IMG/VR virus record: IMGVR_UViG_3300029928_000198
Direction: 5' to 3' (one strand)
DNA: 64,000 nt
Source: a virus
Position numbers and translations under genes: made by a program. The notes beneath the pieces were generated by a model that saw only the letters and a program-made list of their open reading frames with translations, was not told where the DNA came from and made no database searches. Position 1 is the stretch's first letter. Every line of letters begins with the position of its first letter. Of the stretch, positions 1-64,000 are shown one piece after another.

Positions 1-1009
1 AGGTTCCCTTGGCCGAAATCTTCACGGTGAAGCTCTTGACGGCATCCGCCCCGGTCTCGTTGCCGGTGAATCCCGCTTTGGACGGGTCGATGGTAATCTT
101 ACCATCTGCGTATTTCGCGAATCCGTCCACCGCCTTGCTGCTTCCATCCACCGCTGAAACGGTGATGGTCTCGCCGGTGACATCCCCGATGACTGAGGCA
201 TTGGTGGATGCGGAGAACGAATTGTCCCTGACCTCGCCCGCTCCCAGTTCTCCCGCGAAGGTCTCGAAGTAGGAGGGCGCGATGATGGCGTATCCCTCGA
301 CGATCTTCAGGGAAAGGCTGACGGTCTTGGTGCTGGCATCCAGAGCGTTGCTCTTGCCGTCGCTTCCTGCGGGAAGGCCCTTGTCGGAAACGGTGATCTT
401 GACGGTGTAGGGCGTCTCGGAGGATGCGGAGTCGGGTACGGTGCCGGTGACCTTCAGACAGTTGTTCGTGGAATCCCATCCGATGAAGGAGGAGATTGCC
501 TGAGGGATCTCCGCGCTCATGGTGTAGGGCGTGATTCCTCCTGTGACGGCCGGAGTGTAGAGGACAGCACCTGCGACGGTCTTGACCATGGTGCTGGCCG
601 ACTGGGAAAGTCCTCCTGTGACCTCGATGTTGGAAAACACTTGGAAGTTGATGGTCTGGTATGCGTTCTGGACAAGGGAACCCTTGGTCCAAGTGGCCTT
701 GAACTTCACGACCTTGCTGGCCGTGTCTTCGGGGGTGAAGGAGAAGGTTCCGTTCTTGAGGCAAGCATCCATCCCGGATGTCGATGCGGATTTGTCCACT
801 TCGATTGCGACGGTCGCACCGTCCGAGGAGGACAGGTTGACCTGAGGCGCGTAGGTGAACGTGTCGCCGACACGCATGTTGATGGTGTAGGTCTCGTTGT
901 TGTTGCTGGCTGCGTCCAGATCCGACATTATGACGGATGCGGAGCAAAGGGCCAGCATCATAACGAGCGCGTAAGCCATCGCTTTGTTCCTTTTCTGATG
1001 TTCGAACAT
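1..1009 (-). CDS. Secreted/surface protein with Ig-like beta domains; runs off the left edge of the window
   Basis: Absent from the ORF track. Translated by hand from ATG at 1009 (GGTGGGAGG upstream): MFEHQKRNKAMAYALVMMLALCSASVIMSDLDAASNNETYTINMRVGDTFTYAPQVNL..., signal peptide then Thr/Ser/Val-rich strands, open to position 1. Confidence 0.8.
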   Translation of the reverse strand, partial: MFEHQKRNKAMAYALVMMLALCSASVIMSDLDAASNNNETYTINMRVGDTFTYAPQVNLSSSDGATVAIEVDKSASTSGMDACLKNGTFSFTPEDTASKVVKFKATWTKGSLVQNAYQTINFQVFSNIEVTGGLSQSASTMVKTVAGAVLYTPAVTGGITPYTMSAEIPQAISSFIGWDSTNNCLKVTGTVPDSASSETPYTVKITVSDKGLPAGSDGKSNALDASTKTVSLSLKIVEGYAIIAPSYFETFAGELGAGEVRDNSFSASTNASVIGDVTGETITVSAVDGSSKAVDGFAKYADGKITIDPSKAGFTGNETGADAVKSFTVKISAKGT

Positions 1010-1119
1010 AGATGTTCCTCCCACCGATACCGAACGGTACGTTGGGCGATGGGAAACCAATCGGTTCGCTATTGAATGAGGGCTATTCCGATTTCCAGAG
1101 CAGTCTGGTTGCCTTCCAG

Positions 1120-1149
1120 TACAAGGAATCGAAACCGCTTAAATACCGA
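1120..1149. promoter_or_regulatory. Conserved ACAAGGAA-BRE-TATA promoter motif, copy 1
   Basis: TACAAGGAATCGAAACCGCTTAAATACCGA, 29/30 identical to 38151-38180. Confidence 0.65.
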
Positions 1150-1530
1150 AATGAAGGGGATTATCCCCGATCGGTTCCGAGAAGGGATGGAAACAGGGCA
1201 TCGGATGTCCGATAATCTCCGATTCCCGACGGATTCTCTTGGATTCAAGGCATTCTAGGCATCATTCCGATACGTCGGTTCGATTCGAGGGGCGTATGGG
1301 TTTTAGCGATGCAATCCGAGGGCTAGAAAAAGGAATCGACAATCTGGAATGAAATGCGGAAAATCGTCGAAAAACAGTAGAATCGACAAAAACAATGAGA
1401 AACAAGGGAAAAACGAGGAAAAAGTTTGAAAATCAATCACGCGGAACGAAGGGGGTCACCACGGAATTGCATGCGTAGAATCCGTCACTGGCGAAAGGTT
1501 GTTCAGATTGCCCGAAGCCTTCGCCATCCC

Positions 1531-1743
1531 TCACTCCCACCTTATCAGTCCCAAGGACTCGGACATGTAGTACACGGGTTCCCCCACATACTCGTCCTTG
1601 GGCTTCCTGTTCAGCATCATGAAGATGGTTGCCCCGAGGGTGGCGACCGATGCCGCAAGCGATGCGGCCTGAAGGCCCACCGCAAGATCGTCCCTGCGGT
1701 CGTTGCGCTCCGTACGAGTCATCTTGCGGTCCTTTCCGAACAT
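1531..1743 (-). CDS. Small membrane protein with basic N-terminus
   Basis: MFGKDRKMTRTERNDRR then hydrophobic LAVGLQAASLAASVATLGATIFMML; GAGG RBS. Confidence 0.65.
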   Translation of the reverse strand: MFGKDRKMTRTERNDRRDDLAVGLQAASLAASVATLGATIFMMLNRKPKDEYVGEPVYYMSESLGLIRWE

Positions 1744-1747
1744 CCCC

Positions 1748-2026: not shown

Positions 2027-2030
2027 CGTA

Positions 2031-2070: not shown

Positions 2071-2077
2071 ACAGGTT

Positions 2078-6299: not shown

Positions 6300-6899
6300 C
6301 TAATATGCGCGGTATGCGCATCGATGGAGGGCATCTCGCATCCCTCCGTATCTGAGGATCGCGGCGCGGTCGTTCATGAGCATCGCCGTATCCGCATCCC
6401 AGCTCCCGGGATCGGAGCCTTTCGTTATCGAGTACTCCATGTCGTCGGTGGGGATGGATTCCAGTAGCTGGCCGTAGTCCCCCTCGGGTATCCCGTACCT
6501 CATGCAGTACTCCTCCAGAAAGCTCTGGGCCTGTCTTGAGTCCAGTATGTGGTGGCCTCCCCCGCAGACCCAGTTCAGGCGCATCGTGTCCAGCTCTTCG
6601 CGGACCGCCTCGGCCATCTCCTCGATGCCGCCGTCATCCCCGACCTGCACCAGACCGAGGTAGTAGCATCTTCCGAGGCCGTCCCTTCCGAATGCGTGGT
6701 GGAGGCGATGCCCGTCTATCGAGATCGCTCCGCAATGGGGAAGAACGAATCCCTCCGCCATATCATCGGCTTCGAGAAGGCCATCGGGCGGAGCGATGGA
6801 ACCTGCCGACAGGTTCAGGTAGTCGGGTTCGGGGATCTCCGCTCCGGGGAAAGGCATCGCATTGTCGAATGCGCCCAGCTTGCTTTCGGTCATTTCCAT
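6300..6899 (-). CDS. Acidic hypothetical protein
   Basis: Start MEMTES overlaps the upstream TGA. Confidence 0.7.
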   Translation of the reverse strand: MEMTESKLGAFDNAMPFPGAEIPEPDYLNLSAGSIAPPDGLLEADDMAEGFVLPHCGAISIDGHRLHHAFGRDGLGRCYYLGLVQVGDDGGIEEMAEAVREELDTMRLNWVCGGGHHILDSRQAQSFLEEYCMRYGIPEGDYGQLLESIPTDDMEYSITKGSDPGSWDADTAMLMNDRAAILRYGGMRDALHRCAYRAY

Positions 6900-7639
6900 C
6901 ACTTGCACCTGATCCTAGGCTGTCCGCATCCGGGCGGGGATGCATTCCTGACATCTTCTAACAGACGCCCTTCCTCATCCATCGCCTTCCTTGCAAGACG
7001 GGCCGCACGCTTCCCCTTGGCCCGCTCCCTTCCGGTACCGGAACGGATTCTGGCCTCCTCCATCGCGCATCTTCCATCGACCTCCTGTCCTTCGACGATG
7101 CCGAGATGGTCCAGCAGCACGCGGACCAGCATCGAATCGGAGAATCCCCTTGGCAAGCGTGCTATCGGGGAACCGACATCATAATCGGAAACGAGCATCG
7201 GGGCGGAATCGGAGACCTCTATCACCAGCCCTCCTCTGGCCATGTCCTCAAGCTCACCTCTGGTGAAGGAATCCGCCATGACCCCGATTATGCGCTCCTG
7301 CTCCTGAGCCGAGGCTATGATTGCTATGCGCGAGAAGACGGACCTCAGCCTGCCATCCATCCACGGGAAGGTGCGGAACACGTAGGAAGTTCCGTCATCC
7401 ACTCCGATCAGGTCGCTGCCGTTGACCGCATCCCACCATCCGCTGGCCTCAAGCTCCTCGGCGGTGAACGCCTCCCCTTCGGGGACGTGGATCTTCGGAC
7501 CTGCCTTGTAGCGGTCCGAGGAAACCGACCTGTGCTTCCCGGTGGAAGACCAATGGTCGGAATCCAGAAGGTGGGCGTACAGGGCGGATTCCTCCACGAA
7601 TCCCCTGCCGTCCGCCGGGATCCTACTGTTCCGATTCAT
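6899..7639 (-). CDS. Degenerate paralog of the zincin at 17601 (HExxH not retained)
   Basis: Start MNRNSRIP; GWW....SDLIGVDD...RIAIIASAQEQERIIGVMADSFTRGELEDMARGGLVI aligns with the 17601 protein. Confidence 0.7.
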   Translation of the reverse strand: MNRNSRIPADGRGFVEESALYAHLLDSDHWSSTGKHRSVSSDRYKAGPKIHVPEGEAFTAEELEASGWWDAVNGSDLIGVDDGTSYVFRTFPWMDGRLRSVFSRIAIIASAQEQERIIGVMADSFTRGELEDMARGGLVIEVSDSAPMLVSDYDVGSPIARLPRGFSDSMLVRVLLDHLGIVEGQEVDGRCAMEEARIRSGTGRERAKGKRAARLARKAMDEEGRLLEDVRNASPPGCGQPRIRCK

Positions 7640-9111
7640 CTGCGCATCCTCCTTGCATATGAGCGGGCCAGAGTACCCTCCTGCCCCATGTCCACCTCGT
7701 CGTACACGCGCATCCCACGGAACCCCGGGTCGGAAAGGACCTGCTTGGGGGTCCTTCCGGAGAAGCGGGAAAGCTTGGCGACGACGGTTCCGACGTCCGT
7801 TTCGGTTCCGTCCACGGTGTATCTGCGGTCGTCCCACGGCCTTCCGTCGCCGTCGTAGCGTTCGGACATCCTCTTCCTGAACATCGCATCCTGCTCGGTG
7901 ACGGGTTCGTCCAGCATGGCCATGTACGTTCTGGGGACGTCCATGTTCGGGGAACCGGTATCGGACTGGTCCAAGACGACGGAGAACGTCCTGTCCCCGT
8001 TGTCCACGACCCTTCCGGAAACCAGAATGCGTCTGGCGTCGCCTATCTCGGGCGCATCGACCTCCAGAACGCCGTAGTACACGCCCTTGCGGACGGTTGC
8101 CTTCAGCGGTCTGGTCCTCCCCTCGGTCATCTCGATGATGGATGCCCCGATGGCGTCGGCCTTGCTGCTGGGGGTGAGCCTTCCGGCTATGGGTGCGGTG
8201 ACGACTTGGACCCCGTACGTCTGGGTGGAGTAGGTGTCCACGGGATCGGAAGAGATCTCCTCGACCCTCCTGCGGACGCTTGCATCCGAACGTCTGAGCC
8301 TGTCGGCGGTCACGAACTCTTCGCTCATCGGGGGCAAGTCGCCCACATAGGGTTCGTCGGCGATCTTTTTCCGAACAGGCTCCGCGTACTCCACCTCGAA
8401 CACGTAATCGGGGTGCGTGCGGCCCAGCTCCTCTAGCTTCCTCCTGACGGTCTCGGCCTCGTTCGGATCGTAATACTGGACGGTGGATTCTGATGCCCTC
8501 AGGACGGAACCCGTGTAGTACCACTTCCGGGAATCTCCGGGAATGAGGGCCACTATCTCCATGCGACGGCCTTCTGGACGGATGGGCGACCTCATCCACG
8601 GTTCGTAGAGCGGGTCGTCCATCGGGTCGTACGGATTGTCCAGCGGTTCATCGTCGCTGGGGAACGGGGGCCATTCGGGATGATTGGGAACGACTCTAGG
8701 CGCGAAGGAGCCTATGTCGGTCTGGCCGTCCATCCTTCTGGTCTTGGGTGCGCGGAAGTCGAATCCCTTCAGATCGGGACGGTACGAGCCTTCGTATTCC
8801 CTGTAATCGAATTCCTCGTAGGCGGTATCGTCGTCGTAGCGGACGTCGAAATCGTATCCGGGATTGCCCTCGGCCATGGACTGGGCTATCGCCTTCACGT
8901 GCTGGCGGTGGAAGAACGGCCAGCGGAGGGGTTCGTTACCGATGCCATTCCCGTCGAACGGACGGAAGGAATCGTCCTCCGGGGCGCGGACGTATATCTC
9001 CAGATCGCCCGTTCTGGGAAGAGGGGCCTTCACGGTCTGGTCGATGGTCTTTCCGTCGGCGCGTATGGCGTCGTTCCTGACGAAACGCCTTCTGAACGAG
9101 AATCCCTTCAT
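7636..9111 (-). CDS. Large acidic multi-module protein with basic termini
   Basis: Two related modules ending NPGYDFDVRY and HPDYVFEVEY; N-terminus FRRRFVRNDAIR; C-terminus RSYARRMRR. Confidence 0.75.
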   Translation of the reverse strand: MKGFSFRRRFVRNDAIRADGKTIDQTVKAPLPRTGDLEIYVRAPEDDSFRPFDGNGIGNEPLRWPFFHRQHVKAIAQSMAEGNPGYDFDVRYDDDTAYEEFDYREYEGSYRPDLKGFDFRAPKTRRMDGQTDIGSFAPRVVPNHPEWPPFPSDDEPLDNPYDPMDDPLYEPWMRSPIRPEGRRMEIVALIPGDSRKWYYTGSVLRASESTVQYYDPNEAETVRRKLEELGRTHPDYVFEVEYAEPVRKKIADEPYVGDLPPMSEEFVTADRLRRSDASVRRRVEEISSDPVDTYSTQTYGVQVVTAPIAGRLTPSSKADAIGASIIEMTEGRTRPLKATVRKGVYYGVLEVDAPEIGDARRILVSGRVVDNGDRTFSVVLDQSDTGSPNMDVPRTYMAMLDEPVTEQDAMFRKRMSERYDGDGRPWDDRRYTVDGTETDVGTVVAKLSRFSGRTPKQVLSDPGFRGMRVYDEVDMGQEGTLARSYARRMRR

Positions 9112-11396
9112 CGGTTCCCACCTTCATAGTCGTCCAGTCTGGGCTGGCGTCTCTTCTTGGGTAGCCTTCCCTCCTGACGCGCTATATCGTACCGGTCGAT
9201 GGTTCCCATCAGCTCGCCCATCACTGGTACGGCAATGGAGTTGCCCGACTGGTGGTAGAGCTGGGAATCGGAGATTCCTGCATCCCTTGCGCGGTCGAAG
9301 GCCCAGTCCGGGAATCCCTGAAGCCTCCAAGTCTCGCGGGGGGTGAGCTTGCGTATGCGCATCCCGTCGTCCGAGATCTTGGTTATCGAGTTGCCCGAGG
9401 TCCCCGTTGTGCAGGTGGGGGCCAGACCGTCGGGGGAATAGACGCGCTTGATGGATTCGAAGCCCTTCATCCCATCGACTGTTCCGATCTGGCGGCATCT
9501 GTCGTAGACGAAGTTGTCCGTCTTCCTTGAGCCTGCTCTGGTGGTGACGGTGTTGGCGACCTCGTCGCGCTGCTTGGGCTTGAAGCGGAACCCGTTGCCG
9601 GACTCCTCCTCCTTCCTGTTGGATTCGTCCAGACCCTTCAGGCGTGCGTCGGATAGGAAGTACTTCTCCGGGACGTCGTTCTCCAGAATGTCCCCTAGGA
9701 CGGTGTTGGAGCCTGTTCCTACGGGAAGATCGGGGCAATCGTCGCCCAGATGCGAAATCATGTAGGCGCGTTTGCGGTTCTGGGGGGTTCCGAAGTCCTT
9801 GGCGTTGAGGGTCCCCCAGCGCGATGTGTATCCGAGGGAATCCAGATAGTCCACCCATGCCCCGAAGTCCTCCGCGTTCTGCTTCGAGAACACGGCGGGG
9901 ACGTTCTCCATGATGAGCCATTCGGGAAGGGTCCCTCTTGCTCTGGCATCGTCCAGCAGCCTTTCGACCTCCCATAGGAGGGACGAACGGCTGTCGGCCC
10001 CCTTGGCCATGCCCCTCTTCTTGGGATTGGCCCCGCTGAGGTCGGTGCAGTTGTGGACGATTATGCCTGCGGCCATGAAGGACGATGAGCCTTCGACCGT
10101 CAGGTCGTAGACGTCCTCCTCGTCCCCTTCGTCCTCGAATCTGAAAGGCGTCCATATCCATCCGTCCTCGTAGAACGGGCCGACCTTGGGCCTCCCGTCC
10201 TTCCTGAACTTGACGATGTACTGGACGTCGCCGTCCGTGCGGACACCGCCCACCGTCGATATTGACGCCGGGCAATGGTGGACGTACGCTATGAGCCTGA
10301 CCAGATCGTAGGCAAGCTCCCTGCTGGACGCCATCATCGTGACGCGCCCCTTCTCCATGCGGACCCCGTCGCCGTCTATGCATCCGTCCAGCAGGGCCTC
10401 GGCCAGATCGTGCGGAAGTCCCATGTACTTCTCTGGGATGCGCTTCTTCTTCGGCTTCGTCCCGAATTGGGAACAGAAGGCCTCCAGCTCCCTGCTCGAA
10501 ATGTAGACCTCTATGGCGGAGCCGTCCTTCTTCGCGGTGAATCTGGTATCGTAGAGCTTGGCGATGTCGCCCGCTTTGCCTTTTCCGAAGTGGAGCGATA
10601 CCCCTGCCGCTCCGCGTTTCTTCTCCGTACGGCCTCCGGCGATGTAGCGTCCGATGGTCCACCAGAACGACGGGTCGGTCATGCGCTCCGACAGATCGTT
10701 CCTGTGGCATGGGCGGATGGAATCGGCCCACGTGATGTCGATGCCGCCCCATTCGGGCATCGGCTTCTCCTCGGTCACTGGGAATCCGACGTAGCAGCTG
10801 TCGGCCGCCTTCTTCGCGCTTATCCACTCGGGCTTCCCGAATGCGCCCCTGAAATCATCGCCGTCCCAGTCCAGCGACCAGCGGCGGGCATAGACCTTGT
10901 GCTCGGGGGTGCATCTGAACACCTCCCCGCATCCGGCCTTGTACGAGCAAACCTGCTTCGTCCCCGTCCTGCGGGAAAGCAGGACCTTGTGCCATCTCCC
11001 GTCGTGGGAAAGGACGAAATCCCCGACCTCGACCTCGGATATGTTGACCAGACCCTTGGATGTGAGGACGGGCGTATCGGCGGCGAAGCACGGGAAGCTG
11101 TAGGTGAGGATGTCGGATTCGGGGACGCTTTCGATCTTTGTTATGTCGCCCAGATTCGGATTGTCCCCGTAGATGGCCTCGTACGATTTCGTGGCATACT
11201 TGTCTATCTCGGACGTGGCCACCACGTCGTGGGGTATCCCCTTCTCGATGAGGGACATCCTCTGCGCCCCGATTCCGGAGAAAAGCTCCGTGACTCTGAA
11301 CGGTTTGCCGTCCTTCGAATTCTTATTTGCGACCAGTCCGCGCGTGCGGCGTCTGGCCTCGGATGCACGAAGTGCTCTGTTCTTACTGGAGAACAA
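9108..11396 (-). CDS. C5-cytosine DNA methyltransferase interrupted by an intein
   Basis: ELFSGIG (motif I), YSFP|C (motif IV), IMENV (VI), QNRKR (VIII), RKLTPRETWRLQGFP (IX), SGNSI (X). Confidence 0.93.
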   Translation of the reverse strand: MFSSKNRALRASEARRRTRGLVANKNSKDGKPFRVTELFSGIGAQRMSLIEKGIPHDVVATSEIDKYATKSYEAIYGDNPNLGDITKIESVPESDILTYSFPCFAADTPVLTSKGLVNISEVEVGDFVLSHDGRWHKVLLSRRTGTKQVCSYKAGCGEVFRCTPEHKVYARRWSLDWDGDDFRGAFGKPEWISAKKAADSCYVGFPVTEEKPMPEWGGIDITWADSIRPCHRNDLSERMTDPSFWWTIGRYIAGGRTEKKRGAAGVSLHFGKGKAGDIAKLYDTRFTAKKDGSAIEVYISSRELEAFCSQFGTKPKKKRIPEKYMGLPHDLAEALLDGCIDGDGVRMEKGRVTMMASSRELAYDLVRLIAYVHHCPASISTVGGVRTDGDVQYIVKFRKDGRPKVGPFYEDGWIWTPFRFEDEGDEEDVYDLTVEGSSSFMAAGIIVHNCTDLSGANPKKRGMAKGADSRSSLLWEVERLLDDARARGTLPEWLIMENVPAVFSKQNAEDFGAWVDYLDSLGYTSRWGTLNAKDFGTPQNRKRAYMISHLGDDCPDLPVGTGSNTVLGDILENDVPEKYFLSDARLKGLDESNRKEEESGNGFRFKPKQRDEVANTVTTRAGSRKTDNFVYDRCRQIGTVDGMKGFESIKRVYSPDGLAPTCTTGTSGNSITKISDDGMRIRKLTPRETWRLQGFPDWAFDRARDAGISDSQLYHQSGNSIAVPVMGELMGTIDRYDIARQEGRLPKKRRQPRLDDYEGGNR
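10050..11090 (-). mobile_element. Intein (347 aa) with LAGLIDADG-type homing endonuclease
   Basis: Starts CFAADTPVLT, contains LLDGCIDGDG, ends VYDLTVEG..SF.A.GIIVHN; the +1 residue is the catalytic Cys (CTDLS). Confidence 0.92.
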
Positions 11397-15466: not shown

Positions 15467-16161
15467 CGGTAAGGCCTCCTTCCGGTGAGCTTGTCCCAAC
15501 CCACTCTGGAGTTGGACTTGGCCTTCTTGGCCATGTTCTTCAGCTTCGCGCGACGGATGGAATAGACGTCCACCTTGGGATGGTCGATGGTCTGCTCCAG
15601 CTCGATTCCGGCCTTCGGAAGATCGTACCTGTAGGTGGACATCCCGATTCCCCTCTCGAAATGAGGGGGTGTTCCAGCCCCGTTGCGCTGGATGACGGAG
15701 AATTGCCTTCCATCCTCCATCTGGTCGTACATGGCCTTCCTGAACTCGGGGGACCTGTCCAGTGCAGTGGCAACAGCGGTGGACTGCTTGTCGTAGCCGC
15801 ACCCCGTAGTCCTCGGACCCTCCACGCGACGGTAGCATCTGTTGCCGTTGGAATCCCTGTAGCGGTAGTCGAATGTGGCCTGCGCCTGATCGCCCATATT
15901 GCTTTTTTCCCAATCTACAACGATGGTCCCGTCCTCGAAGTCGCCTGCCTCCTCAACGGAACGGAGGTCATCGAGCCTGCGCTCGTATTCCCTTCCGGCC
16001 GCGTCGATGTATCCGCGCTGGGTGGCATACCTCTTCCCCTCGACGTAGCGGTCTTCGCTGTAGGGGACGCCCACGGTGTTCCTGTAGGCGTCGTCGCGCA
16101 TGCGCTCGTAGCGTCTGGTGTTCCGATTATAGACGAGATATTCCCTTCTCACGGGAATCAC
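15454..16161 (-). CDS. Hypothetical protein
   Basis: GTG start at overlap; GCGYDKQSTAVA motif; basic C-terminus KAKSNSR. Confidence 0.7.
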   Translation of the reverse strand: MIPVRREYLVYNRNTRRYERMRDDAYRNTVGVPYSEDRYVEGKRYATQRGYIDAAGREYERRLDDLRSVEEAGDFEDGTIVVDWEKSNMGDQAQATFDYRYRDSNGNRCYRRVEGPRTTGCGYDKQSTAVATALDRSPEFRKAMYDQMEDGRQFSVIQRNGAGTPPHFERGIGMSTYRYDLPKAGIELEQTIDHPKVDVYSIRRAKLKNMAKKAKSNSRVGWDKLTGRRPYRCQR

Positions 16162-17498
16162 CTCTTGGAACCCTTCTTGGCTGAGGATTTGCCCTTCCTG
16201 TTGGACGATACCTGAAGCGTGGACTGCTTCGTGGTCTTGGGCGCGGCCTTCTTGGGTGCAGCCTTCGGCTGAGCATTCTTGGCGGGGGCCTTGGAACTGG
16301 TCTTCTTGGGCGCGGATTTGGCCTTGGGGGCGTTCTTAGCCTGAGCCTTGGGCTTGGAATTGGACTTGGACTTGGGCTTGGATGCGCTCTGGCCGTTCGT
16401 CTTCTTCTTGGGCCTAGACTTTGCCTTGATCTTCTCGACTTCATCCCTGCGGTAGGTGACAGGGGTGTTATCGGGCGCGTCGATGCCCTGAATGTCGTAC
16501 TGGTGCGGAGCCTCTATCCAAGGCTTGGCCTGATAGGGCGTGGGCGATGCGGGGATGACCCTCATTGCCACCCTGTGCTCGTCCGCGATCCTAGCTCTCG
16601 GATGCCTTGCGTCGTTGATCTGCTGGAGGTAGGTCTTGGAAACGAATCCGTTGGGGGTCGTCTTGACGAGATACGCCCTTCCCTGACTGTCCTTCATGGT
16701 GACATGCTGGGCAATTTCCGCCTTCGACGGAGGACGCGCGGGGCGGTAGTTCAGATAGACGGGTTCCTCCGGAGCGACGTTCCTGCTCCTGTAGACGGTG
16801 GGAACGGCGGTCTTGGGCGCGTCGATGCCTACGATGTCTCCGCATCCGGGATTCTTTATCCATGCGCCGGCCTGCTTGGGTGTGAGCCTTGCGGGATAGA
16901 CCCTCTTGGAGGTACCTCTGGCATCGATGGCGATCGCTCCGGGAGGCCTTCCATTCTGAACAGCCACGAGGTAGTCCTTCTTGACGTAGCCGTTCTTGGT
17001 GGTGGGTACGGGCATGGACCTGCTCCCCTGAGGGTAGTAGCCGTATCTGGTCTTGGCCGACATGGATCTTGCCGGACCCATGTTGAGGGACCTTCCAGCG
17101 GGCATGGCGGCGGGCCTGTTCATGGATGCCTGTCTGGCCTTCAGCTCCTCGGACTTCATCTTGCGGTTGGCGGATGCCACCTTCGCCTCGTAGGTCTGGG
17201 GTCCGCAGGCGGGACCGCTGCACGCAGGCGCAAGGTTCTTCAGAGATACCCTGACGTCCTTGTAGTCGGCCCTGTCCAGAATGTCTCTGGCCTCCTTGAG
17301 CCTCTTCTGCTGCTTGGCCTCGGCCTCGTATCTAGCGGCCTGCTCAGCAGCCTTGGCGGCCTTCTGGGCCTCCTTCCTTCTCCTTTTCTCTTCCTTCGCA
17401 CGCATCTTGTTGATCTGAGCTTCGCTCAGACCTGCTGTTCCGCCGTAGACCTGAGCGTTGTTCAGCACGGGGATGTCGTTGTAGTTCTGATACACCAT
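16158..17498 (-). CDS. Very basic protein with two internal repeats and a histone-H1-like Lys/Ala/Pro tail (candidate nucleoprotein)
   Basis: Two NG(Y/F)V.K.YL...PA..TP.QA..WI..P...DI.GIDAP repeats; tail PKAKSAPKKTSSKAPAKNAQPKAAPKKAAPK. Confidence 0.75.
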   Translation of the reverse strand: MVYQNYNDIPVLNNAQVYGGTAGLSEAQINKMRAKEEKRRRKEAQKAAKAAEQAARYEAEAKQQKRLKEARDILDRADYKDVRVSLKNLAPACSGPACGPQTYEAKVASANRKMKSEELKARQASMNRPAAMPAGRSLNMGPARSMSAKTRYGYYPQGSRSMPVPTTKNGYVKKDYLVAVQNGRPPGAIAIDARGTSKRVYPARLTPKQAGAWIKNPGCGDIVGIDAPKTAVPTVYRSRNVAPEEPVYLNYRPARPPSKAEIAQHVTMKDSQGRAYLVKTTPNGFVSKTYLQQINDARHPRARIADEHRVAMRVIPASPTPYQAKPWIEAPHQYDIQGIDAPDNTPVTYRRDEVEKIKAKSRPKKKTNGQSASKPKSKSNSKPKAQAKNAPKAKSAPKKTSSKAPAKNAQPKAAPKKAAPKTTKQSTLQVSSNRKGKSSAKKGSKR

Positions 17499-17600
17499 AT
17501 CTCTCAACTACCTGTTCCGTCACAATCTGGCCCTTGTGACCGGGCATGTAGTCAAGTCCGAACGAGGCCGGAACGGAGGAATCGATGCAATGTCTCGAAA

Positions 17601-40399: not shown

Positions 40400-40400
40400 C

Positions 40401-44627: not shown

Positions 44628-44676
44628 TTATCCACCTTATTCTAAGGATGTTGAACTTTCGATTTAAGCGCTGCGA
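44614..44676. repeat. 63-bp exact repeat (promoter, RBS and start of the DZR paralogs)
   Basis: Identical to 45593-45655. Confidence 0.85.
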
Positions 44677-44700
44677 CATGAATGCTGGTCATTAAGTAAA

Positions 44701-44737
44701 ACAAAAAACGAAAGGAAAACATCCCTGATGGGATGTA
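44701..44737 (-). terminator. Hairpin plus T-tract terminator
   Basis: ACATCCC-ATCA-GGGATGT followed on the minus strand by TTTCCTTTCGTTTTTTGT. Confidence 0.6.
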
Positions 44738-44754
44738 AGGTGTTTTAGAAGCAA

Positions 44755-45606: not shown

Positions 45607-45687
45607 TTATCCACCTTATTCTAAGGATGTTGAACTTTCGATTTAAGCGCTGCGATATAAGAGGTTTGGAAGAAGTTTGTCGAACGG

Positions 45688-47610: not shown

Positions 47611-50600
47611 AGCACGTACCTCCTTATCAGGATAAGAGCGGCGATTCCGATGAGCAGCGCGCACGCCGCGTACCTTATGACATCGTTGGAATCCTCGGAT
47701 TCCTCCGGAACCCATACCGCGTACAGATCGAGCTTGCCCTCGGGCGAAACCTCGTCGCCGGCCTTGTAGGTGGTTCCCTTGAGGTCGGGGGACGTGTTCC
47801 AATACTTGCAGGTCATGCCCTCCCTGACGAACTTGCACTCTTGGATGGTGTACTTCTTGGAACCCGTCTGGGCATCCATCGTCCCCTGACCGCCGTTGGC
47901 GTGATAGACGATGGAGGGTCCTTCGGACGAGGACAGATCGACGTTCACGGTGAACTCCCTCTGAGAAGGAGTCCCGTCGGTGGAGGTCCATGTCCAGACC
48001 ATCGAAACCGAATACTTGCCCTTCGAGGAGTACTCGTGAGTGAACTCGGCCGATGCGGCGTCCCTGCTGAGGTTGCTGCCGTCGCCCCAATCTACCATCA
48101 GGCGCATGGACGACTTGTTGGGTACGATGTCCGTAAGCGTGACCACAAGCCCGTTCGCCTTGTATTTGGCGGATGCCTCGATCTTCACGTCGTCCGGGTC
48201 TGACTGGGCGTAGACGGTGGCCTTCCACGTCTCCACGGGGGTGGAGCCGTTGCTAAGGAGGAACGTGACCTCCTTCCCGACGAGTCCGATCTCGTTGCAG
48301 GTTCCGGTGACGACGTAGATGTACGTCTTGTCGTCCGTAAGGGTGCTCTTGTTCAGCTTGAAGCAGTCCAGAGTCCTTCCGTCGCATGTCGCCTTCAGCG
48401 TCAGGTTGCTGTATAAGGATTTGATGGCCTTGGACTGATACATGGAGCCGATGTTGATGATGTCCGAGGCATCGACCGAGGGTTCGTCCAGAGTCTCCAG
48501 AATCACGAATGCCTCGGCGGTTCCGACATTGTTCTTGGCCGTGCACTTGACGGTGTATGCGCCGATGACCTTGAAGGTGTGAACCACCTCCACTTTGGTT
48601 GTCGGCTCCGTCTCCCCGTCTCCGAAATCCCATATCAGGGTATCGTAGTTCGCTACTCCGAAGGCGGAGAAGTAGTAGGTGTTGGGTTCGGCGGGGTTGT
48701 CGTCGGATGCCCCCGCATATCTGGTCGCCTTGATGGAAGAGATGGTGGGCTTCTCCTTGTACTCCCCGGGTGGTTCTGCGCGGAGCGTTATTGTCTTGAT
48801 TGCAGAGGATGTAATGGTTGAATCGACAACCAGATCTATCGTGTATATCCCCTCCTCCTTGCAGACTATGTAGAATCCCTTGTTGCCCGACTTTCCGGCA
48901 TCGTACTGGTTCGGCTTGGCGGTCTCATTGTTGAACTTGACCGTGTAGGACACGATGTACGCATCGTTGGGCCTCAGAGTGAGATTGACAGTCCACTTCT
49001 CGCCGATGATGGCTTTCGCATCTATGGGTTCAAGCACCACCGTGGACATCTCGATGATGAAATCCTGCGTTGCGGAATTGTAGCCGTTCTTCGTGACCTT
49101 TATCTGGACAGTGTAGGTCGCCGGGATCAGGTCTTTCAATGTTCCATTGATATTGTTCCCGATTCCACGGAGGCATTCCGTCGGGTCTTTGACTATCTCG
49201 ACCTTGAAGTCGGTAATATTCTCAAGAGTGATCGAATCCCTGACATACGGCGTGTAGTTTATCGTCAGACCGTTCACAGCAGCGCGCCACGTGTATTCTG
49301 GATCCAACACCAGCGACGGAACGTCCCAATGCGCGTAGAGCGTGATGTCTCCGCTGGGGGCGTATTCGGCTCCTGCGCTGCCGATGAAGTTTCCGCCTTC
49401 CTTGGCGTCGTACCATCCGGAGAACTTGGAGCTGTCCTTGATTGCAACAGGCAAACGGATGGTGCCAGTGGTAGTCTCCGTCTTGGTGCTCTGACCGTCT
49501 ACCGAACCTCCGTTGGCGTCGAAGGTGATAGTGGATTCCCTGACGAGGGTGAGGGTTCCGCTATCTGTACCATATGCGCCATAACTGTCCACCCACTGCA
49601 ATTCCGTTTCTCCCGCCTTGGGAATCAGAACGTAGTTGTGGTCGGTGGTCTTGCCGGCAATCGTACCAACACCATCGGGCATGTTTACCAGATAGGTTTC
49701 TATGTTCGGGTTGCCAGTGATGAAGCGACCTTTCAGAATCAACAGATTCACGTCAGAGTCCAGACTCAATGACTCGTTTCCATTGATGTGATCCTTCAGC
49801 TCTATTGTTTTGACGTTGATGTCGGCATCGGATACCGAGATGGTTTTGGATGCAGACACGTTGGAGCCGTCCTTGGATTTGGCGGTGATTTCTATATCTC
49901 CTTCCGATACACCGATGATTACAAGATCCCCGTTCCCATCGACATAATATCCGCCATGACCTTGGCTGGAGATGGTCCAAGAAACTTCTTTGAAAGCAGC
50001 ATCTGATGGCGTCACATCCGCATGAACAGTAATCGTGGAACCCATCTTCACGGAATCTTCGCTGCGTATCGATATGCTTGATGCGAATTTTCCGCCATCC
50101 GTGCAAATCAGAGTGCCTGTCTTCTCGGTAACAACCTTTGTTGATTTGTTGTTGTACTGGATCTTAGCCGTTACCACTCCGGCCTTGTTCAGTTTCCCCG
50201 AGATGCTTCCATCATCGGTAATCGAAAGGCCGAAGCCTTCGGTGACGGATAGAGCGGTAATTTCCACACTGAGCATCGATGTGCTTTCAAAATTCACTTG
50301 AGAACCAGGTTTCACAAAAAATGTCTGATATGCCAAATTGCTTAATTGGGCATCTACGCTTGAAACAGGGTCTTCAATCGTACCGTAATTCACCTTCCCA
50401 TAGATCGGAAGATCGGATCCATAAATCGTCGTAGAGACCAGATTTACTGTCTTACCATCCAGAGTTATCGTGGAATTCGAGTGCAGATTGCCGTATATCG
50501 ACGAATCCTCGGGACTGACGGCGAAATCCGTTCCGCCAGCGAAGGCGATGCCGTTCATCGACTTCCCCTCGAACGTTATCAGGACCTCCCCGCCAGCCAC

Positions 50601-50813
50601 GACGTAGTAGTCCGCCCCGTCCGTCAGCTCGGACCAGTCGGCGTACAGGCCCCCGTAGGGTTCCGTACCCGATCCGTACGACGCGGCGTCGGAGTCGCAG
50701 TCCCCCGAGCCGACCAGAAGGAACGCAGATGCCAGCACGAAGGCGAACAGAGCCATCGCCGGGATCGCGACCCTCGGATGCGGATCGGAAGGACGTTTTC
50801 TTTCTCTTTCCAT
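47607..50813 (-). CDS. Surface adhesin: shared N-domain, Ig group-2 domain, B-repeats, PKD domains, TM anchor
   Basis: Start moved to MERERK; WDFGDG, VDWGDG, ITFDANGG..GWY; C-terminal TM. Confidence 0.9.
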   Translation of the reverse strand: MERERKRPSDPHPRVAIPAMALFAFVLASAFLLVGSGDCDSDAASYGSGTEPYGGLYADWSELTDGADYYVVAGGEVLITFEGKSMNGIAFAGGTDFAVSPEDSSIYGNLHSNSTITLDGKTVNLVSTTIYGSDLPIYGKVNYGTIEDPVSSVDAQLSNLAYQTFFVKPGSQVNFESTSMLSVEITALSVTEGFGLSITDDGSISGKLNKAGVVTAKIQYNNKSTKVVTEKTGTLICTDGGKFASSISIRSEDSVKMGSTITVHADVTPSDAAFKEVSWTISSQGHGGYYVDGNGDLVIIGVSEGDIEITAKSKDGSNVSASKTISVSDADINVKTIELKDHINGNESLSLDSDVNLLILKGRFITGNPNIETYLVNMPDGVGTIAGKTTDHNYVLIPKAGETELQWVDSYGAYGTDSGTLTLVRESTITFDANGGSVDGQSTKTETTTGTIRLPVAIKDSSKFSGWYDAKEGGNFIGSAGAEYAPSGDITLYAHWDVPSLVLDPEYTWRAAVNGLTINYTPYVRDSITLENITDFKVEIVKDPTECLRGIGNNINGTLKDLIPATYTVQIKVTKNGYNSATQDFIIEMSTVVLEPIDAKAIIGEKWTVNLTLRPNDAYIVSYTVKFNNETAKPNQYDAGKSGNKGFYIVCKEEGIYTIDLVVDSTITSSAIKTITLRAEPPGEYKEKPTISSIKATRYAGASDDNPAEPNTYYFSAFGVANYDTLIWDFGDGETEPTTKVEVVHTFKVIGAYTVKCTAKNNVGTAEAFVILETLDEPSVDASDIINIGSMYQSKAIKSLYSNLTLKATCDGRTLDCFKLNKSTLTDDKTYIYVVTGTCNEIGLVGKEVTFLLSNGSTPVETWKATVYAQSDPDDVKIEASAKYKANGLVVTLTDIVPNKSSMRLMVDWGDGSNLSRDAASAEFTHEYSSKGKYSVSMVWTWTSTDGTPSQREFTVNVDLSSSEGPSIVYHANGGQGTMDAQTGSKKYTIQECKFVREGMTCKYWNTSPDLKGTTYKAGDEVSPEGKLDLYAVWVPEESEDSNDVIRYAACALLIGIAALILIRRYVL

Positions 50814-59082: not shown

Positions 59083-59517
59083 TCATGAGTACTCGCATAG
59101 GCCCATCCTCAAGGATTCAGCATCCTCTTCGCCTTTCATGTAATTCGCATACCAAGTGAGGTATGAGGGGTACGGCTTCACGTCGAAAAGAGCTGCGATG
59201 GATGTCTTGATGGCCGTTATGAGCGAACAGCCCTCATTTTCCATGATTTTTCCTATCATGGTCAAGCAGATGTCCGCCCTGTCGCGCGGCATCCACGTTT
59301 TGAAGTCCAAGCCGTCGGACGTCCATAGATAGAGGTCCTTCTCATCCCTGTGGATCCAGATCCCCCTGCGGAATCCCTCGGGTCTAACTGCTTCCCTCAA
59401 CCCGTGGACCCTGTACTCCCCTATGTGGATAGTGGTTGCGAAAGGCCCGTGCACATCCGCATCCATGTCCGAGTAGCGGTCTTCGACCTTCAGGATCCTG
59501 TTGTCTTGGCATGTCAT
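59083..59517 (-). CDS. Hypothetical protein; N-terminus paralogous to the 60766 gene
   Basis: MTCQDNRILKVEDRYSDMDADVHGPFAT. Confidence 0.75.
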   Translation of the reverse strand: MTCQDNRILKVEDRYSDMDADVHGPFATTIHIGEYRVHGLREAVRPEGFRRGIWIHRDEKDLYLWTSDGLDFKTWMPRDRADICLTMIGKIMENEGCSLITAIKTSIAALFDVKPYPSYLTWYANYMKGEEDAESLRMGLCEYS

Positions 59518-59564
59518 ATTCTGTCCTCCTCTTGCAGATTATCCCTGCATTTACCATATGGTAG

Positions 59565-60017
59565 TTATTCATCGAGCTTGTCACGAGCCAAGGTCAGATA
59601 CTTGGCGACAGCCTGAACACTGATCCTGCGTCCTGTCTTGCAACTCATAATGTTTGCCGCCTCCGCATTGGATGAGGTGCGACGACGTACAACGTAAGCT
59701 AGGGCCTCCATCGGCGACAGCCCATCGTCAAGAATCTTGTGCGTCATATCTATTCGGATAACCGCATCTGTCTCGGCGTCCGTCCGGTCCACGGGTGCGA
59801 CGTCGAAGCTTCCGCGCTCCGCGATGCCCTCGATGCTGTCGATGATCTCGTCATCGCTCGGAAGGCGGTCGCCGAAGCTCCTGCCGAGGTGAAGGTCCAG
59901 CTTGGAACCGTCCTCGGCGGTCATCTGCACGATGTCGCCTTCCGGGTCGGTGATGCCGCCAGTCACATCTCCCGTTTCTAGGAGCCTTCTGATCTCATCA
60001 ATGGTCCTTATCAGCAT
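59565..60017 (-). CDS. Protein with C-terminal HTH (sigma-factor-region-4-like)
   Basis: LSPMEALAY...SNAEAANIM...ISVQAVAKYLTLARDKL. Confidence 0.6.
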   Translation of the reverse strand: MLIRTIDEIRRLLETGDVTGGITDPEGDIVQMTAEDGSKLDLHLGRSFGDRLPSDDEIIDSIEGIAERGSFDVAPVDRTDAETDAVIRIDMTHKILDDGLSPMEALAYVVRRRTSSNAEAANIMSCKTGRRISVQAVAKYLTLARDKLDE

Positions 60018-60418: not shown

Positions 60419-60766
60419 TTACTCCCAGTCCTCCTCTTCATCCTCATCGTCGTCGCCGACCCATGCGCGGGACCTCTCGCGGCAACACTTCGCGGGAAGG
60501 CGTCCGCTCTCCTCGACGACATCGATGAGTTCGCCGATCAGGGGGTCGCCGCCCTCGTCGTCCTCGTCGGGGACGCGGTCGTATTCGCAGACGACGATCT
60601 GTCTTCCGCCTGTCCTGCGCATGAGGTCGGAGCGCGTGCATCTGTCTAGAATATCGAGCGCAGCAGCCTTCGCCTCGCCGAAGGTCGCGAACGGTCCGAT
60701 CACGTCCGTATCCATGTCCGAGTAGCGGTCTTCGACCATCAGTATCCTCTTGTCTTGGTATGCCAT
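60419..60766 (-). CDS. Acidic hypothetical protein; paralogous N-terminus
   Basis: MAYQDKRILMVEDRYSDMDTDVIGPFAT. Confidence 0.75.
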   Translation of the reverse strand: MAYQDKRILMVEDRYSDMDTDVIGPFATFGEAKAAALDILDRCTRSDLMRRTGGRQIVVCEYDRVPDEDDEGGDPLIGELIDVVEESGRLPAKCCRERSRAWVGDDDEDEEEDWE

Positions 60767-60802
60767 TAGTTATCCTCCTCTTGCAGGACTCATCCCCTGC
60801 AA

Positions 60803-60849
60803 TTACTACATGGTAAATTATTTATTTAAATGCTCTTACTATATGGTAA
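60803..60849 (-). promoter_or_regulatory. TATA box flanked by two operator-like palindromes
   Basis: TTACTACATGGTAA (60803-16) and TTACTATATGGTAA (60836-49) flank TTTAAATA; third copy TTACCATATGGTAG at 59551-64. Confidence 0.6.
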
Positions 60850-61798: not shown

Positions 61799-62082
61799 CG
61801 GTCCGCCTCCAGAAGCTCAGTCTGGACGCGCCAGAACACGGCTTTGCGCCCTGTCGCGGGATCGGTCTTCTTCCCTGCGCGGTAGATCATCCCCATCTCT
61901 GCAAGCTCGTTGGTGCGCGGGGTGATCGTGTTGATCTCTCTCCTGAGGTATCTCGCGATGTCCTTGTTGGAGGGGTCCACGAGGATGACGACCGCCCTCA
62001 GGACCTCGCCTTGCAGGCGCGATACGCCACCCTCGGCCTCGAAGTCTAGGAATGCTTCAACGGAAGTCTGGGCGACGGTCAT
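61744..62082 (-). CDS. Phage-type winged-helix protein
   Basis: SNKDIARYL..EINTITPRTNEL..MG.I..AGK..D..TGR.AV.W. Confidence 0.75.
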   Translation of the reverse strand: MTVAQTSVEAFLDFEAEGGVSRLQGEVLRAVVILVDPSNKDIARYLRREINTITPRTNELAEMGMIYRAGKKTDPATGRKAVFWRVQTELLEADRCHTSLREGLRDALGVLS

Positions 62083-62696
62083 TCCTGATGCCTCCTATTG
62101 GCTTCTTGGGCGAATCCCTTCAGCCACGAGGGATCCTTCAGGTCGAAGGTGTTGTCCAACCATAGCGTGTACCCGCATCCGCATTCGATGCCGATGCACC
62201 TGACGCTGGACAGCATCTCTTCGGGGTCCTGTCCGATGTCCGCGAAGACGTCCCTGTCGAAGGAGCCGTCGGATTTCAGGGTGTACCTCATATCCTCCAG
62301 CGTCGCCTCGCAGTCGCAGAAGGTGATGAACCTGTACGTGATCTGCTTCCCGCATACGGGGCAAGGCCTGAAAAGCCCGGAGGAATCGCTCGCCGCCGCC
62401 CTCCTGTTGGCCCCATCCGCGAATTCCCTCAGCCACGAGGGATCCTTCAGGTCGAAACTGTCGTTCGGCCAGTAGGCGTATCCGCACGGACAGAGCAGGC
62501 CGACGAAGTACACCCATGAAAGCAGGTCGTCAAGCTCCTCGCCGCGTCCTCTTATCGGGGCCTCGTCGAAGGAGCCGTCCTCCCTGAGGGCTTCGTCCAA
62601 GTCGTGGAACAGGTCCTCCTCGTCAGCGAACCTGATGCCCTTGTAGGACAATCCGCGCCCGCATATAGGGCAAGGCCTGAAGGTCACGGCGGTCAC
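62079..62696 (-). CDS. Tandem-duplicated Lar-like Zn-ribbon protein
   Basis: Two FRPCP.CG...C.CGY..W...FDLKDPSWL..FA..ANRR units. Confidence 0.7.
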   Translation of the reverse strand: MTAVTFRPCPICGRGLSYKGIRFADEEDLFHDLDEALREDGSFDEAPIRGRGEELDDLLSWVYFVGLLCPCGYAYWPNDSFDLKDPSWLREFADGANRRAAASDSSGLFRPCPVCGKQITYRFITFCDCEATLEDMRYTLKSDGSFDRDVFADIGQDPEEMLSSVRCIGIECGCGYTLWLDNTFDLKDPSWLKGFAQEANRRHQE

Positions 62697-63319
62697 CGTA
62701 CCACCTTCTTCCCCACATTGAGGATGGAGTCCGTGTCCAGCGAATAGTACGCCGTCCTCCTTCCGGGCTTCCCGTTCCTGTCCCCGTCTATCCATCCGGC
62801 CGCCTTGGTACCCTCCGGGATCAGGAACATCGCCTGAAGGTCCTTCAGAGGGATCTGCGAAAGCAGGTACAGCTGGCGTCCGGTCGCCCCTCTAGCCTTG
62901 GCTCCCTTGAGGATGTGCGACTTGGTCCAATGCCTCATGGAGTATGGGCCGAAGTACCCGGGATCGGGATCGACGCCGAACTCCCAAGACTCCACCGCTC
63001 CCGAGTAGTACTCCAGAGTGGGGTATTTCTCGCACCCTTTGACGACCTGCTCCCTGCAAACGTGCTCCAGACGCCCCTCCAGCGGGATCGTCGTGCGGAT
63101 GCCGACGTTCATGACGAACTCGTGGGTGGACCTGACGGAGGCGACGAACTCCTTGTCGCCTTCGAACCCGACCGACCCGACCGTCGGCCTGTACTCGTGG
63201 AGCGCGCATCCGACGATGTCCGGAAGGCTACCCTCCACGACCTCCTGAGGGAAGTTGTCGGGGTCCTTGTAGAGCAGCGTGGACGCGAAGACGACGGTGA
63301 CGCGCCTGAGGTCGGTCAT
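62693..63319 (-). CDS. Hypothetical protein
   Basis: Start MTDLRRV at ATGA overlap. Confidence 0.65.
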   Translation of the reverse strand: MTDLRRVTVVFASTLLYKDPDNFPQEVVEGSLPDIVGCALHEYRPTVGSVGFEGDKEFVASVRSTHEFVMNVGIRTTIPLEGRLEHVCREQVVKGCEKYPTLEYYSGAVESWEFGVDPDPGYFGPYSMRHWTKSHILKGAKARGATGRQLYLLSQIPLKDLQAMFLIPEGTKAAGWIDGDRNGKPGRRTAYYSLDTDSILNVGKKVVR

Positions 63320-63741
63320 GCGGATTCCCCCTCCAGAAGCCTGTCGTACACCCCGTCGCCGAGGATGGCGAAGGACTGGGGGGCGGTCCTGACCCCGACA
63401 TCGGCCAGCGCGTAGGGGCTGGCGAACCTGTGGACCCCTTCTATGACGATGCCGTAGGTCGGACTGCCGGCCGCATATCCTTCGAACTCCTCGGGTCCGA
63501 TGCAGGTGCCGGAAAGGTCCGGGTCGGAAGGGTCTATGACCCTGTATCCGTCCGAAAGGAAGCATCCCGTTATCCCCCTCTTCCCCGTCTCGTAGACGAG
63601 GACCCTCAGGGAAGTGCGCCCCGAGGTCCTGTACTGGTAGGGGATCCTCCTGCGGACCTCGACGGTCTTCTCCCCCGAGTAGATCATCTCGGCCCACTTG
63701 GGCTTCAGGGCAAGGATGATGTCGATGCTCCTGACGCTCAT
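63316..63741 (-). CDS. ASCH-domain protein
   Basis: ILALKPKWAEMIYSGEKTVEVRR...VLVYET...G...P..L...G...APQSF. Confidence 0.85.
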   Translation of the reverse strand: MSVRSIDIILALKPKWAEMIYSGEKTVEVRRRIPYQYRTSGRTSLRVLVYETGKRGITGCFLSDGYRVIDPSDPDLSGTCIGPEEFEGYAAGSPTYGIVIEGVHRFASPYALADVGVRTAPQSFAILGDGVYDRLLEGESA

Positions 63742-64000
63742 TGCATCACCTCCTCGGACGGCTCGCAGCCCGTCTGTTGGGGTTCGGACGGGTTTAGACG
63801 GACTTCGGCGGATGTTTGGTACTCGGATACGTCCGAAGCCCCTTCGTCGATTCTAGAGGGCTTCTCGACATTGTTCTCGGACTCCGCGCACTTCATGAGG
63901 TGCAGCGGATCGTAGGGCGAAGACTCGACGTAATCGAGGATCGCGCGGCGGACGAGGACCATGACGTCCCTTCCCTCGCACAACGCCCTTCCGCGAAGCT
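63738..64000 (-). CDS. RHH (CopG-like) protein; start lies beyond the right edge
   Basis: Frame open to the edge: LRGRALCEGRDVMVLVRRAILDYVE. Confidence 0.55.
   Translation of the reverse strand, partial: LRGRALCEGRDVMVLVRRAILDYVESSPYDPLHLMKCAESENNVEKPSRIDEGASDVSEYQTSAEVRLNPSEPQQTGCEPSEEVMQ

Follow-up and report, generated by a model that had tools for sequence, protein, structure and literature searches.

What kind of replicon is held in IMG/VR virus record IMGVR_UViG_3300029928_000198, and how does it pass from cell to cell? A preliminary description of a 64,000-nucleotide stretch of this record (the window), made from the letters and their open reading frames, had proposed a possible giant relative of the pleolipoviruses, enveloped and spread by membrane fusion. 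We found that the window lies entirely within a mobile element, of which it makes up 77%, and that the element encodes a predicted spike of the VP4/VP5 type together with a membrane-protein and ATPase module that adjoins the spike in several relatives. The reading that we favor, at a probability of roughly 0.55, is that the element is temperate and belongs, as an unusually large member, to the VP4-spike lineage of Methanomassiliicoccales, and that it spreads in capsid-less lipid particles and enters cells by fusion.

The spike is predicted to be a VP4/VP5-type fusogen

The gene at 45688–47610 (minus strand) encodes a 640-residue VP4/VP5-like protein, a candidate fusogen, which we examined with an AlphaFold2 (AF2) model, Foldseek, VIA-align, the BFVD database of predicted viral structures, and BLASTP. 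The model, with a predicted local distance difference test score (pLDDT) of 71, begins with a signal-like N terminus and a glycine-rich hydrophobic segment, continues through helical, beta, helical, and beta domains in that order, and ends in C-terminal transmembrane helices. Foldseek against the Protein Data Bank (PDB) gave VP5 of HRPV6 as the top match (E 1.5e-3, 583 columns). VIA-align aligned the model with the VP5 chain 6qgl_B at Z 8.5 (207/229 residues, root-mean-square deviation 5.1); this chain was the sole match with Z of at least 8 among 48,161 PDB representatives, the next unrelated chain reaching Z 6.6, and the score was obtained both among the Foldseek candidates and, independently, in the full search of PDB representatives. 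In BFVD, the top match was VP4 of HRPV-11 (E 2.6e-6, probability 1.00). None of the structure searches assigned the spike to an unrelated family. A shape search of the ESM Atlas with the spike model returned only template-modeling scores (TM-scores) of at most 0.23, and profile searches of PDB sequences with 15 and 77 spike sequences gave no meaningful match.

BLASTP places the spike beside proteins that have already been classified. It is 25% identical over 338 residues (E 1.5e-28) to R9T8T5, the VP4-like fusogen of the Methanomassiliicoccus intestinalis Issoire-Mx1 provirus vir422 (Baquero et al. 2024, PMC10919331), which locus L042 encodes exactly (three motifs, 623 residues), and 23% identical over 616 residues (E 2e-27) to a second copy. 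Close relatives of the spike are few (17 clusters at 90% identity), whereas a search with its profile gave 269 clusters (50% identity), whose proteins are all about 600–700 residues long, and the family is present in 60 of the 261 species genomes of the order (23%). We conclude that the predicted spike, judged by homology and modeled fold, belongs to a family that others have assigned to the pleolipovirus-type fusogens, in agreement with the preliminary description. The element is less new than the description had claimed: VP4-like-fusogen proviruses of Methanomassiliicoccales (vir422–vir447) are already published (PMC10919331, citing Medvedeva et al. 2023), so that its kind is known.

A spike-to-HExxH module is conserved in the family

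A second group of genes, all on the minus strand, makes up a compact module with the following order. It opens with an 87-residue small membrane protein (22098–22361) that has two or three hydrophobic segments and holds the same position in three relatives (L016, L017, and L018). Next come a 297-residue protein with two N-terminal transmembrane helices and a C-terminal coiled-coil tail (21208–22101), whose homologues stand at the same position in 12 loci with 20–39% identity, and a 313-residue, strongly acidic helical protein (20274–21215; 80 Asp/Glu versus 49 Lys/Arg), whose position is kept in nine relatives. The 143-residue protein at 19852–20283 overlaps the start of the ATPase gene and is a real gene: P0095 and P0101 have it as one fusion with the ATPase, and it is conserved in 13 relatives. 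It is followed by a 432-residue P-loop ATPase of the HerA/FtsK superfamily with a C-terminal helix-turn-helix (HTH) and a disordered tail (18617–19915). The last conserved gene encodes a 350-residue, putative metallopeptidase-like protein with an invariant HExxHH motif (17601–18653); it directly follows the ATPase in 10 relatives, and 3 of 11 members have a weak match to DUF6782. The 297-residue protein had no Pfam or PHROG match and no hhalign match to pleolipovirus ORF6/ORF7; an atlas feature search gave it a score of 0.83, which we take as a lead only.

Across the 15 loci that we compared, the same block recurs: a small transmembrane protein, a transmembrane protein of about 300 residues, an acidic protein, a protein of about 120–140 residues that is sometimes fused to the ATPase, the ATPase itself, and an HExxHH protein of about 350 residues. 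In four relatives (L010, L016, L017, and L020) the block is directly preceded by a spike homologue, so that the ATPase operon noted in the preliminary description is indeed tied to the spike as a conserved neighbor. In the window and in other relatives, including L022 and L025, the slot is occupied by a homologue of a 920-residue adhesin, and in the window copy the spike sits 23 kb away from its module. The module that runs from the spike to the HExxH protein is the sole block common to the whole family. The occupant of the slot was considered as a second spike and rejected, as hhalign shows no relation between it and the spike.

The preliminary description had called the ATPase an extrusion ATPase; our results place it in a broader class. 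It has a Walker A motif at residue 24, a Walker B motif (LILDEAQ), the C-terminal HTH, and a core of about 230 residues. With its AF2 model (pLDDT 76), VIA-align gave HerA at Z 12.2, the STIV2 B204 packaging NTPase at Z 12.1 (158/195 residues aligned), VirB4 at 11.2, and the Zot N-domain at 11.0, so these four are effectively tied as the best matches of the predicted structure. Among 25 homologues, Pfam matched Zot in 16 and AAA_22 in 22, both weakly, and HTH_23 in 11. Against eight pleolipovirus NTPases, hhalign gave a probability of 89.7% (E 1.8e-6), limited to 124 columns of the P-loop. The protein is thus a generic HerA/FtsK-class P-loop ATPase, which fits a DNA-handling or extrusion type. 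When profiles of the ATPase, the HExxH protein, and the 920-residue adhesin were searched against PDB sequences, none gave a meaningful match.

Counted by cluster representatives, the ATPase family has at least 139 members in the database. At one locus of Ca. Methanarcanum hacksteinii (L009:5018-21017), the neighbors of the ATPase and its 123-residue partner are an integrase, a resolvase, and an HTH regulator, with PAPS_reduct/PglZ-type (BREX-like) genes beyond them; the 20 kb examined there contain no spike, so the ATPase pair can travel without a spike. A resolvase accompanies the ATPase in small relatives too.

The HExxH protein belongs to a set of three paralogues on the minus strand (17601–18653, 6899–7639, and 16158–17507) that have an IPVD...WW.DPS.CD.GIDT domain in common. 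The 449-residue paralogue is extremely basic, with 92 Lys/Arg and a tail rich in lysine, proline, and alanine, and relatives of the 350-residue HExxH protein carry similar lysine-rich tails. These paralogues may bind DNA.

The window is part of a mobile circle of about 83.5 kb

By exact-protein look-ups, the genes of the window recur on roughly 100 assembly blocks, none of them on a contig longer than 200 kb. The longest contigs of the element measure 81,798–86,253 bp, come from several metagenomes, and differ in their start points. One contig (L011) bridges both ends of the window, and the summed overlaps give a circle of about 83.5 kb. The first part of the arc outside the window (about 19.5 kb) encodes five further adhesins or surface proteins, a reverse transcriptase of the diversity-generating retroelement (DGR) type, and a 739-residue adhesin; the second part holds a 524-residue tyrosine integrase, an intergenic region (attP), about nine unknown genes, and a serine resolvase. 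The arc also encodes a transglutaminase-like protein.

An integrated form was found on a 109.8-kb contig (L015), in which the match to the circular form ends 295 bp past the integrase and is followed by tRNA-Ser and host genes. Together, the circular form and this junction show that the element excises and integrates: it is a mobile, circular or permuted molecule of about 82–83 kb that is also integrated next to tRNA-Ser via the 524-residue tyrosine integrase. The whole 82–83 kb recurs as a single permuted contig with 97–99% identity in several independent samples, which indicates that the element propagates as a unit.

The DGR region was observed at L011:13125-16870, about 7.4–11.2 kb beyond window position 1, where a 491-residue DGR-type reverse transcriptase (RVT_1) adjoins the 739-residue adhesin (Flg_new/PKD). 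Several of the 82-kb contigs break in this region, as a hypervariable repeat would predict.

To ask what the rest of the element encodes, we scanned all of the approximately 75 window proteins and 18 proteins from the remainder with Pfam and PHROG. At this sequence level, no match to a capsid, portal, terminase, VirB4/VirD4, or relaxase protein appeared among about 95 proteins of the window and the closing arc, nor any traceable match to an HK97 capsid, major capsid protein, large terminase, portal, or tail gene. One PHROG match to a "major tail protein" (E 3.9e-6) was not traced to any gene, and our guess is that Ig-like repeats caused it. Genes of a type IV secretion system (VirB4, coupling protein, and relaxase) had no Pfam match among the element proteins, the 432-residue ATPase resembling VirB4 in fold only, and the 18 scanned arc proteins gave no virion or conjugation signature with Pfam or PHROG. 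No replication initiator (Rep, MCM, primase, or polymerase) was recognized across the whole element, and about 50 of its proteins have no annotation. Thus the absence of capsid, terminase, portal, VirB4, and relaxase matches, which the preliminary description had reported for the window, extends to the arc; the flanks hold adhesins, the DGR, an integrase with attP, and a resolvase, and no type IV secretion or tailed-virus module. The gene positions given earlier also stood, namely the spike-like gene, the membrane, coiled-coil, and ATPase operon (18617–22361), and four adhesins with transmembrane anchors, and the earlier count of about 70 cargo genes compares with about 75 genes in all that we call in the window.

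Host and relatives of the element

Relatives of the ATPase in species genomes come almost all from Methanomassiliicoccales (Methanomethylophilaceae, Ca. Methanoprimaticola, and Ca. Methanarcanum), in line with the host order first proposed. From these relationships, we conclude that the host is a Methanomethylophilaceae-type gut methanogen of this order. A further profile search (A7) returned only the close set of relatives. Contigs of the element family (L016, L018, and L026) were binned into metagenome-assembled genomes labeled Dialister hominis and Lachnospiraceae bacterium; these labels almost certainly reflect mis-binning of a mobile element.

We delimited three proviruses of the family by direct repeats that overlap tRNA genes. 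The provirus vir422 measures 11.7 kb (19-bp repeat, tRNA-Lys(ctt)), and a further one in M. intestinalis spans 22.1 kb (repeat of 21 bp, tRNA-Pro(ggg)); in both, an adhesin gene lies just upstream of the spike. The third, in Ca. Methanoprimaticola sp. MG2, measures 31.6 kb (NZ_JBEQWH010000001.1, 213,493–245,128), with a 22-bp repeat at the 3' end of tRNA-Pro(cgg). The MG2 genome carries three spike copies in total, and the M. intestinalis Issoire-Mx1 chromosome (a single contig of 1,931,651 bp) has four spike loci by profile. In other genomes the spike lies 15–32 kb from an integrase. At about 83.5 kb, the element is 2.6 to 7 times the size of the relatives measured here. Classified pleolipoviruses have genomes of 7–17 kb (PMC10919331), so the element exceeds every classified pleomorphic archaeal virus about fivefold in size, and the claim that it far exceeds them in size stands.

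The MG2 provirus is the relative most instructive for the module, as it carries the spike, a transmembrane protein, proteins of 299 and 282 residues, a fused gene for the 143-residue protein and the ATPase, and the HExxH protein in one block. Its ATPase is 42% identical to that of the element, and upstream adhesins and an integrase are present too; unlike the element, it is 2.6 times smaller, keeps its spike undisplaced, and resides in a named strain. The published proviruses vir422–vir447 resemble the element in the spike family with its succession of helical and beta domains, in the host order, in a tyrosine integrase at a tRNA, and in an adhesin directly upstream of the spike. They differ in that the two M. 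intestinalis proviruses are far smaller and do without this ATPase family, whereas the displaced spike, the DGR, several restriction–modification (RM) systems, and at least eight adhesins are the element's own.

Pleolipoviridae (HRPV-1, HRPV-6, and His2) and Thalassapleoviridae are like the element in the VP4/VP5 spike fold and in having no detected capsid gene, and many of their members show integrase-mediated lysogeny. In eight pleolipovirus records the morphogenetic genes follow the order of spike, small transmembrane protein, transmembrane protein of about 280–300 residues, and P-loop NTPase, which parallels the module in relatives of the element; the small and the 300-residue transmembrane proteins of the element thus sit at positions analogous to the VP3/ORF6/ORF7 block. 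The His2 NTPase also has an HTH, as the element ATPase does. Pleolipoviridae differ in their smaller genomes, in that the likeness of the NTPase is confined to the P-loop core, and in that the gut-methanogen host of the element belongs to another phylum. Unlike in Pleolipoviridae, no rolling-circle replication Rep, Rep-Arvir, or protein-primed polymerase was recognized in the element.

How the element may spread between cells

Under the reading that we favor, the ATPase would, after excision, use its HTH to recruit the DNA, or pump it, to patches of membrane that carry the spike and the small membrane proteins, and the DNA would exit in a capsid-less lipid vesicle. The spike would then bind a new cell and fuse the vesicle with it, and the integrase would insert the delivered DNA. 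The preliminary description had stated budding in vesicles and entry by fusion too strongly. From the gene set we infer that vesicles form, that the ATPase loads them with 83 kb, that fusion takes place, and that adhesins may act on particles.

Several observations weigh against this reading. The Foldseek TM-scores of the spike are low (0.14–0.26), because its two halves or domains fail to superpose as one rigid body. By hhalign, the spike profile matched eight haloarchaeal VP4s with a probability of 2.6%, and HRPV-1 VP4 alone was also not significant, so that the predicted link to haloarchaeal VP4 is one of modeled fold, apart from homology to methanogen proteins classed as VP4-like. Homologues of VP3, ORF6, and ORF7 were not found by hhalign against profiles of five to eight pleolipoviruses (probability at most 1%). 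Of the pleolipovirus-like character first proposed, the spike fold and family and the synteny of the module therefore stand, and a matrix protein (VP3) and homologues of ORF6 and ORF7 were not detected. The ATPase and the spike found no match by tblastn among INPHARED phages, and the part of IMG/VR searched with the ATPase, as a single sequence and as a profile, did not return the element. Moreover, the modeled ATPase fold would not tell packaging, conjugation, and extrusion ATPases apart, and the M. intestinalis proviruses with the same spike family have no such ATPase at E 1e-5 or better, so spike and ATPase are separable. Finally, there is no precedent for a pleolipovirus-type vesicle, at about 50 nm, that contains a genome of 83 kb, and particles, budding, and fusion are predicted from the genes.

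Four other explanations must be weighed against a capsid-less virus. In the one closest to it, the element is a plasmid able to integrate and travels, as pR1SE of Halorubrum does, in vesicles that it encodes itself; the module would make the vesicles and load the DNA, and most of the replicon would be cargo of plasmid type. The pR1SE-like elements of haloarchaea span 44–271 kbp around a core of 18–44 kbp, encode a VirB4/packaging-like ATPase, and integrate into the chromosome (PMC10818511). Our element is likewise a large, excising and integrating, cargo-rich replicon; it has two recombinases and, beside membrane proteins, an ATPase whose structural neighbors include VirB4 and packaging ATPases. 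The pR1SE-like elements are proposed to travel in lipid vesicles, a comparison that extends to ours through the class of the ATPase alone. Against this, no VP4-like spike is reported for pR1SE, its host and habitat differ, the VP4-like family of our spike has to date been seen in pleomorphic viruses only (PMC10919331), and the relatives of 11.7–31.6 kb resemble ordinary proviruses. We consider a plasmid of this kind unlikely, and its difference from the favored reading is largely one of naming.

The remaining three are less likely still. The size could instead reflect a composite: a small pleolipovirus-like provirus that merged with a second mobile element or gene islands, or was invaded by them, so that the 83.5 kb would not be packaged whole and only a subgenomic part, or nothing, would be transferred. 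This would account for the 23 kb between spike and module, with adhesin, NYN, and RM genes between them, for low-GC islands at 26–28 and 44–48 kb, for the presence of both a tyrosine integrase and a serine resolvase, and for the cassettes swapped between copies. However, the recurrence of the full length as a permuted, nearly identical contig in independent samples and the resolvase beside the ATPase in small relatives make a composite quite improbable. We are equally doubtful of transfer by cell contact, in which a spike on the lysogen surface would fuse or bridge cells, adhesins would hold them, and the HerA/VirB4-like ATPase would move DNA with no free particle. VirB4 and HerA are as good matches of the ATPase as packaging ATPases are, adhesins with transmembrane anchors are many, and the genome exceeds the known capacity of pleomorphic virions; yet neither Pfam nor PHROG found a relaxase, coupling protein, or other component of a type IV secretion system, and VP4-type proteins are known solely as virion spikes (PMC6381117, PMC10919331). 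The least probable explanation, which we rate as very unlikely, is a virus that does build a capsid (a tailed virus, or one with a double jelly-roll capsid and an internal membrane) from genes too divergent for Pfam and PHROG. The proteins without annotation leave room for it, and STIV2 B204, the packaging ATPase of a double jelly-roll virus, is among the tied best matches of the ATPase; still, no terminase, portal, major capsid protein, or tail gene was identified, the sole block kept down to relatives of 20–30 kb is the spike, transmembrane, and ATPase module, and a capsid module would not fit into the 11.7-kb relative.

The small size of pleomorphic viruses that lack a capsid is generally attributed to the need for a vesicle to take up DNA with neither capsid nor condensing machinery. 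If the favored reading is true, a member of 83.5 kb would test the packaging limit of such viruses. A bolder form of that reading, which we hold only tentatively and think less probable than the favored reading as a whole, is that genomes have grown beyond 80 kb in a lineage of archaeal viruses that have an envelope and no capsid, with one VP4-fusogen vesicle delivering a genome about five times those of known pleomorphic viruses and with DGR adhesins and a swappable spike retargeting it within the gut. Pleolipovirus-type viruses would then be linked to vesicle-borne plasmids such as pR1SE, and the line between virus and plasmid in methanogens would be blurred. Relative to the published lineage, what may be new is the scale of this member, the definition of the ATPase/HExxH module, and a displaced and swappable spike. 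The element is common in the gut, as the number of assembly blocks indicates, and its adhesins, DGR, and defense or anti-defense genes could alter the attachment and virus resistance of methanogens. The MG2 provirus, in a named strain, offers a possible experimental handle on fusion entry outside haloarchaea.

Surface proteins and a variable region

The element has at least eight adhesin-like genes. Four are in the window, with an N-terminal signal, a C-terminal transmembrane anchor, and Flg_new, PKD, Big_2, or He_PIG domains; all are on the minus strand. These are the 920-residue, beta-helix-like adhesin that takes the spike slot (22871–25633; He_PIG), a 1495-residue adhesin (33508–37995; Flg_new, Big_2, and PKD), a 1049-residue adhesin directly upstream of the spike with a 4-nt overlap (47607–50756; Flg_new and PKD), and the N-terminal part of a 527-residue adhesin (2–1024) that, by contig extension, continues past the window start. 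Some adhesins may decorate the surface of the particle or the lysogen. Beyond the adhesins and the DGR, the surplus content comprises at least two RM/defense cassettes, orphan methylases, and many small unknown genes. We regard the roughly 60 kb of extra genes as accessory cargo, made up of adhesins (one of them DGR-diversified) and RM, orphan methylase, exonuclease, NYN, GNAT, and Tad2-like genes.

Alignment of a variant contig (L047) with the window by blastn, together with the GC profile, delimits a variable region at 38177–47124 that holds the spike ectodomain, two zinc-ribbon membrane genes, and an RM cassette. Identity of 98% between the variant and the window extends from 55610 to 47124; roughly 160 codons into the spike gene the two part, and the match resumes, at 98.8% identity, at 38177. 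Between these breakpoints it carries a spike ectodomain of 69% identity, mosaic zinc-ribbon genes, and an RM cassette of a C5 methylase and EcoRII-C. The low-GC island at 44–48 kb falls inside this region. With copies 98–99% identical elsewhere and one breakpoint within the spike gene, 38177–47124 appears as a recombination hot spot, and the exchange of the ectodomain is as expected for a receptor-binding or entry protein.

Other genes in the window

The window has a G+C content of about 58%, and genuine genes show high G+C at third codon positions (GC3). The genes, called by codon usage, lie mostly on the minus strand and are packed in tight operons; there are no tRNA genes in the 64 kb. Pfam and PHROG also matched NYN, RNase_T exonuclease, GNAT, DUF3990, and Tad2-like domains, zinc-ribbon membrane proteins, and methylases. 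A C5 cytosine DNA methylase at 9108–11396 (minus strand) is split by an intein: PF00145 matches in two stretches (E 1.5e-56), and Intein_splicing/Hint lies at about residues 100–450.

An RM/defense cassette on the plus strand (38318–43685) pairs, by Pfam, an Eco57I-type methylase with a T5orf172/ResIII helicase gene. In the latter (40401–43685), a single in-frame TAG lies between the T5orf172 (GIY-YIG-like) domain and the ResIII helicase. Pyrrolysine is in use in Methanomassiliicoccales, and with the TAG read as pyrrolysine the gene yields a 1094-residue protein in which the ResIII match covers residues 124–297. Because this match starts upstream of the GTG start of the 961-residue open reading frame, read-through or an earlier start is favored. 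Among small acidic genes, a repeat of about 140 bp (59434–59569 and 60683–60822, 82% identity) suggests paralogous small genes.

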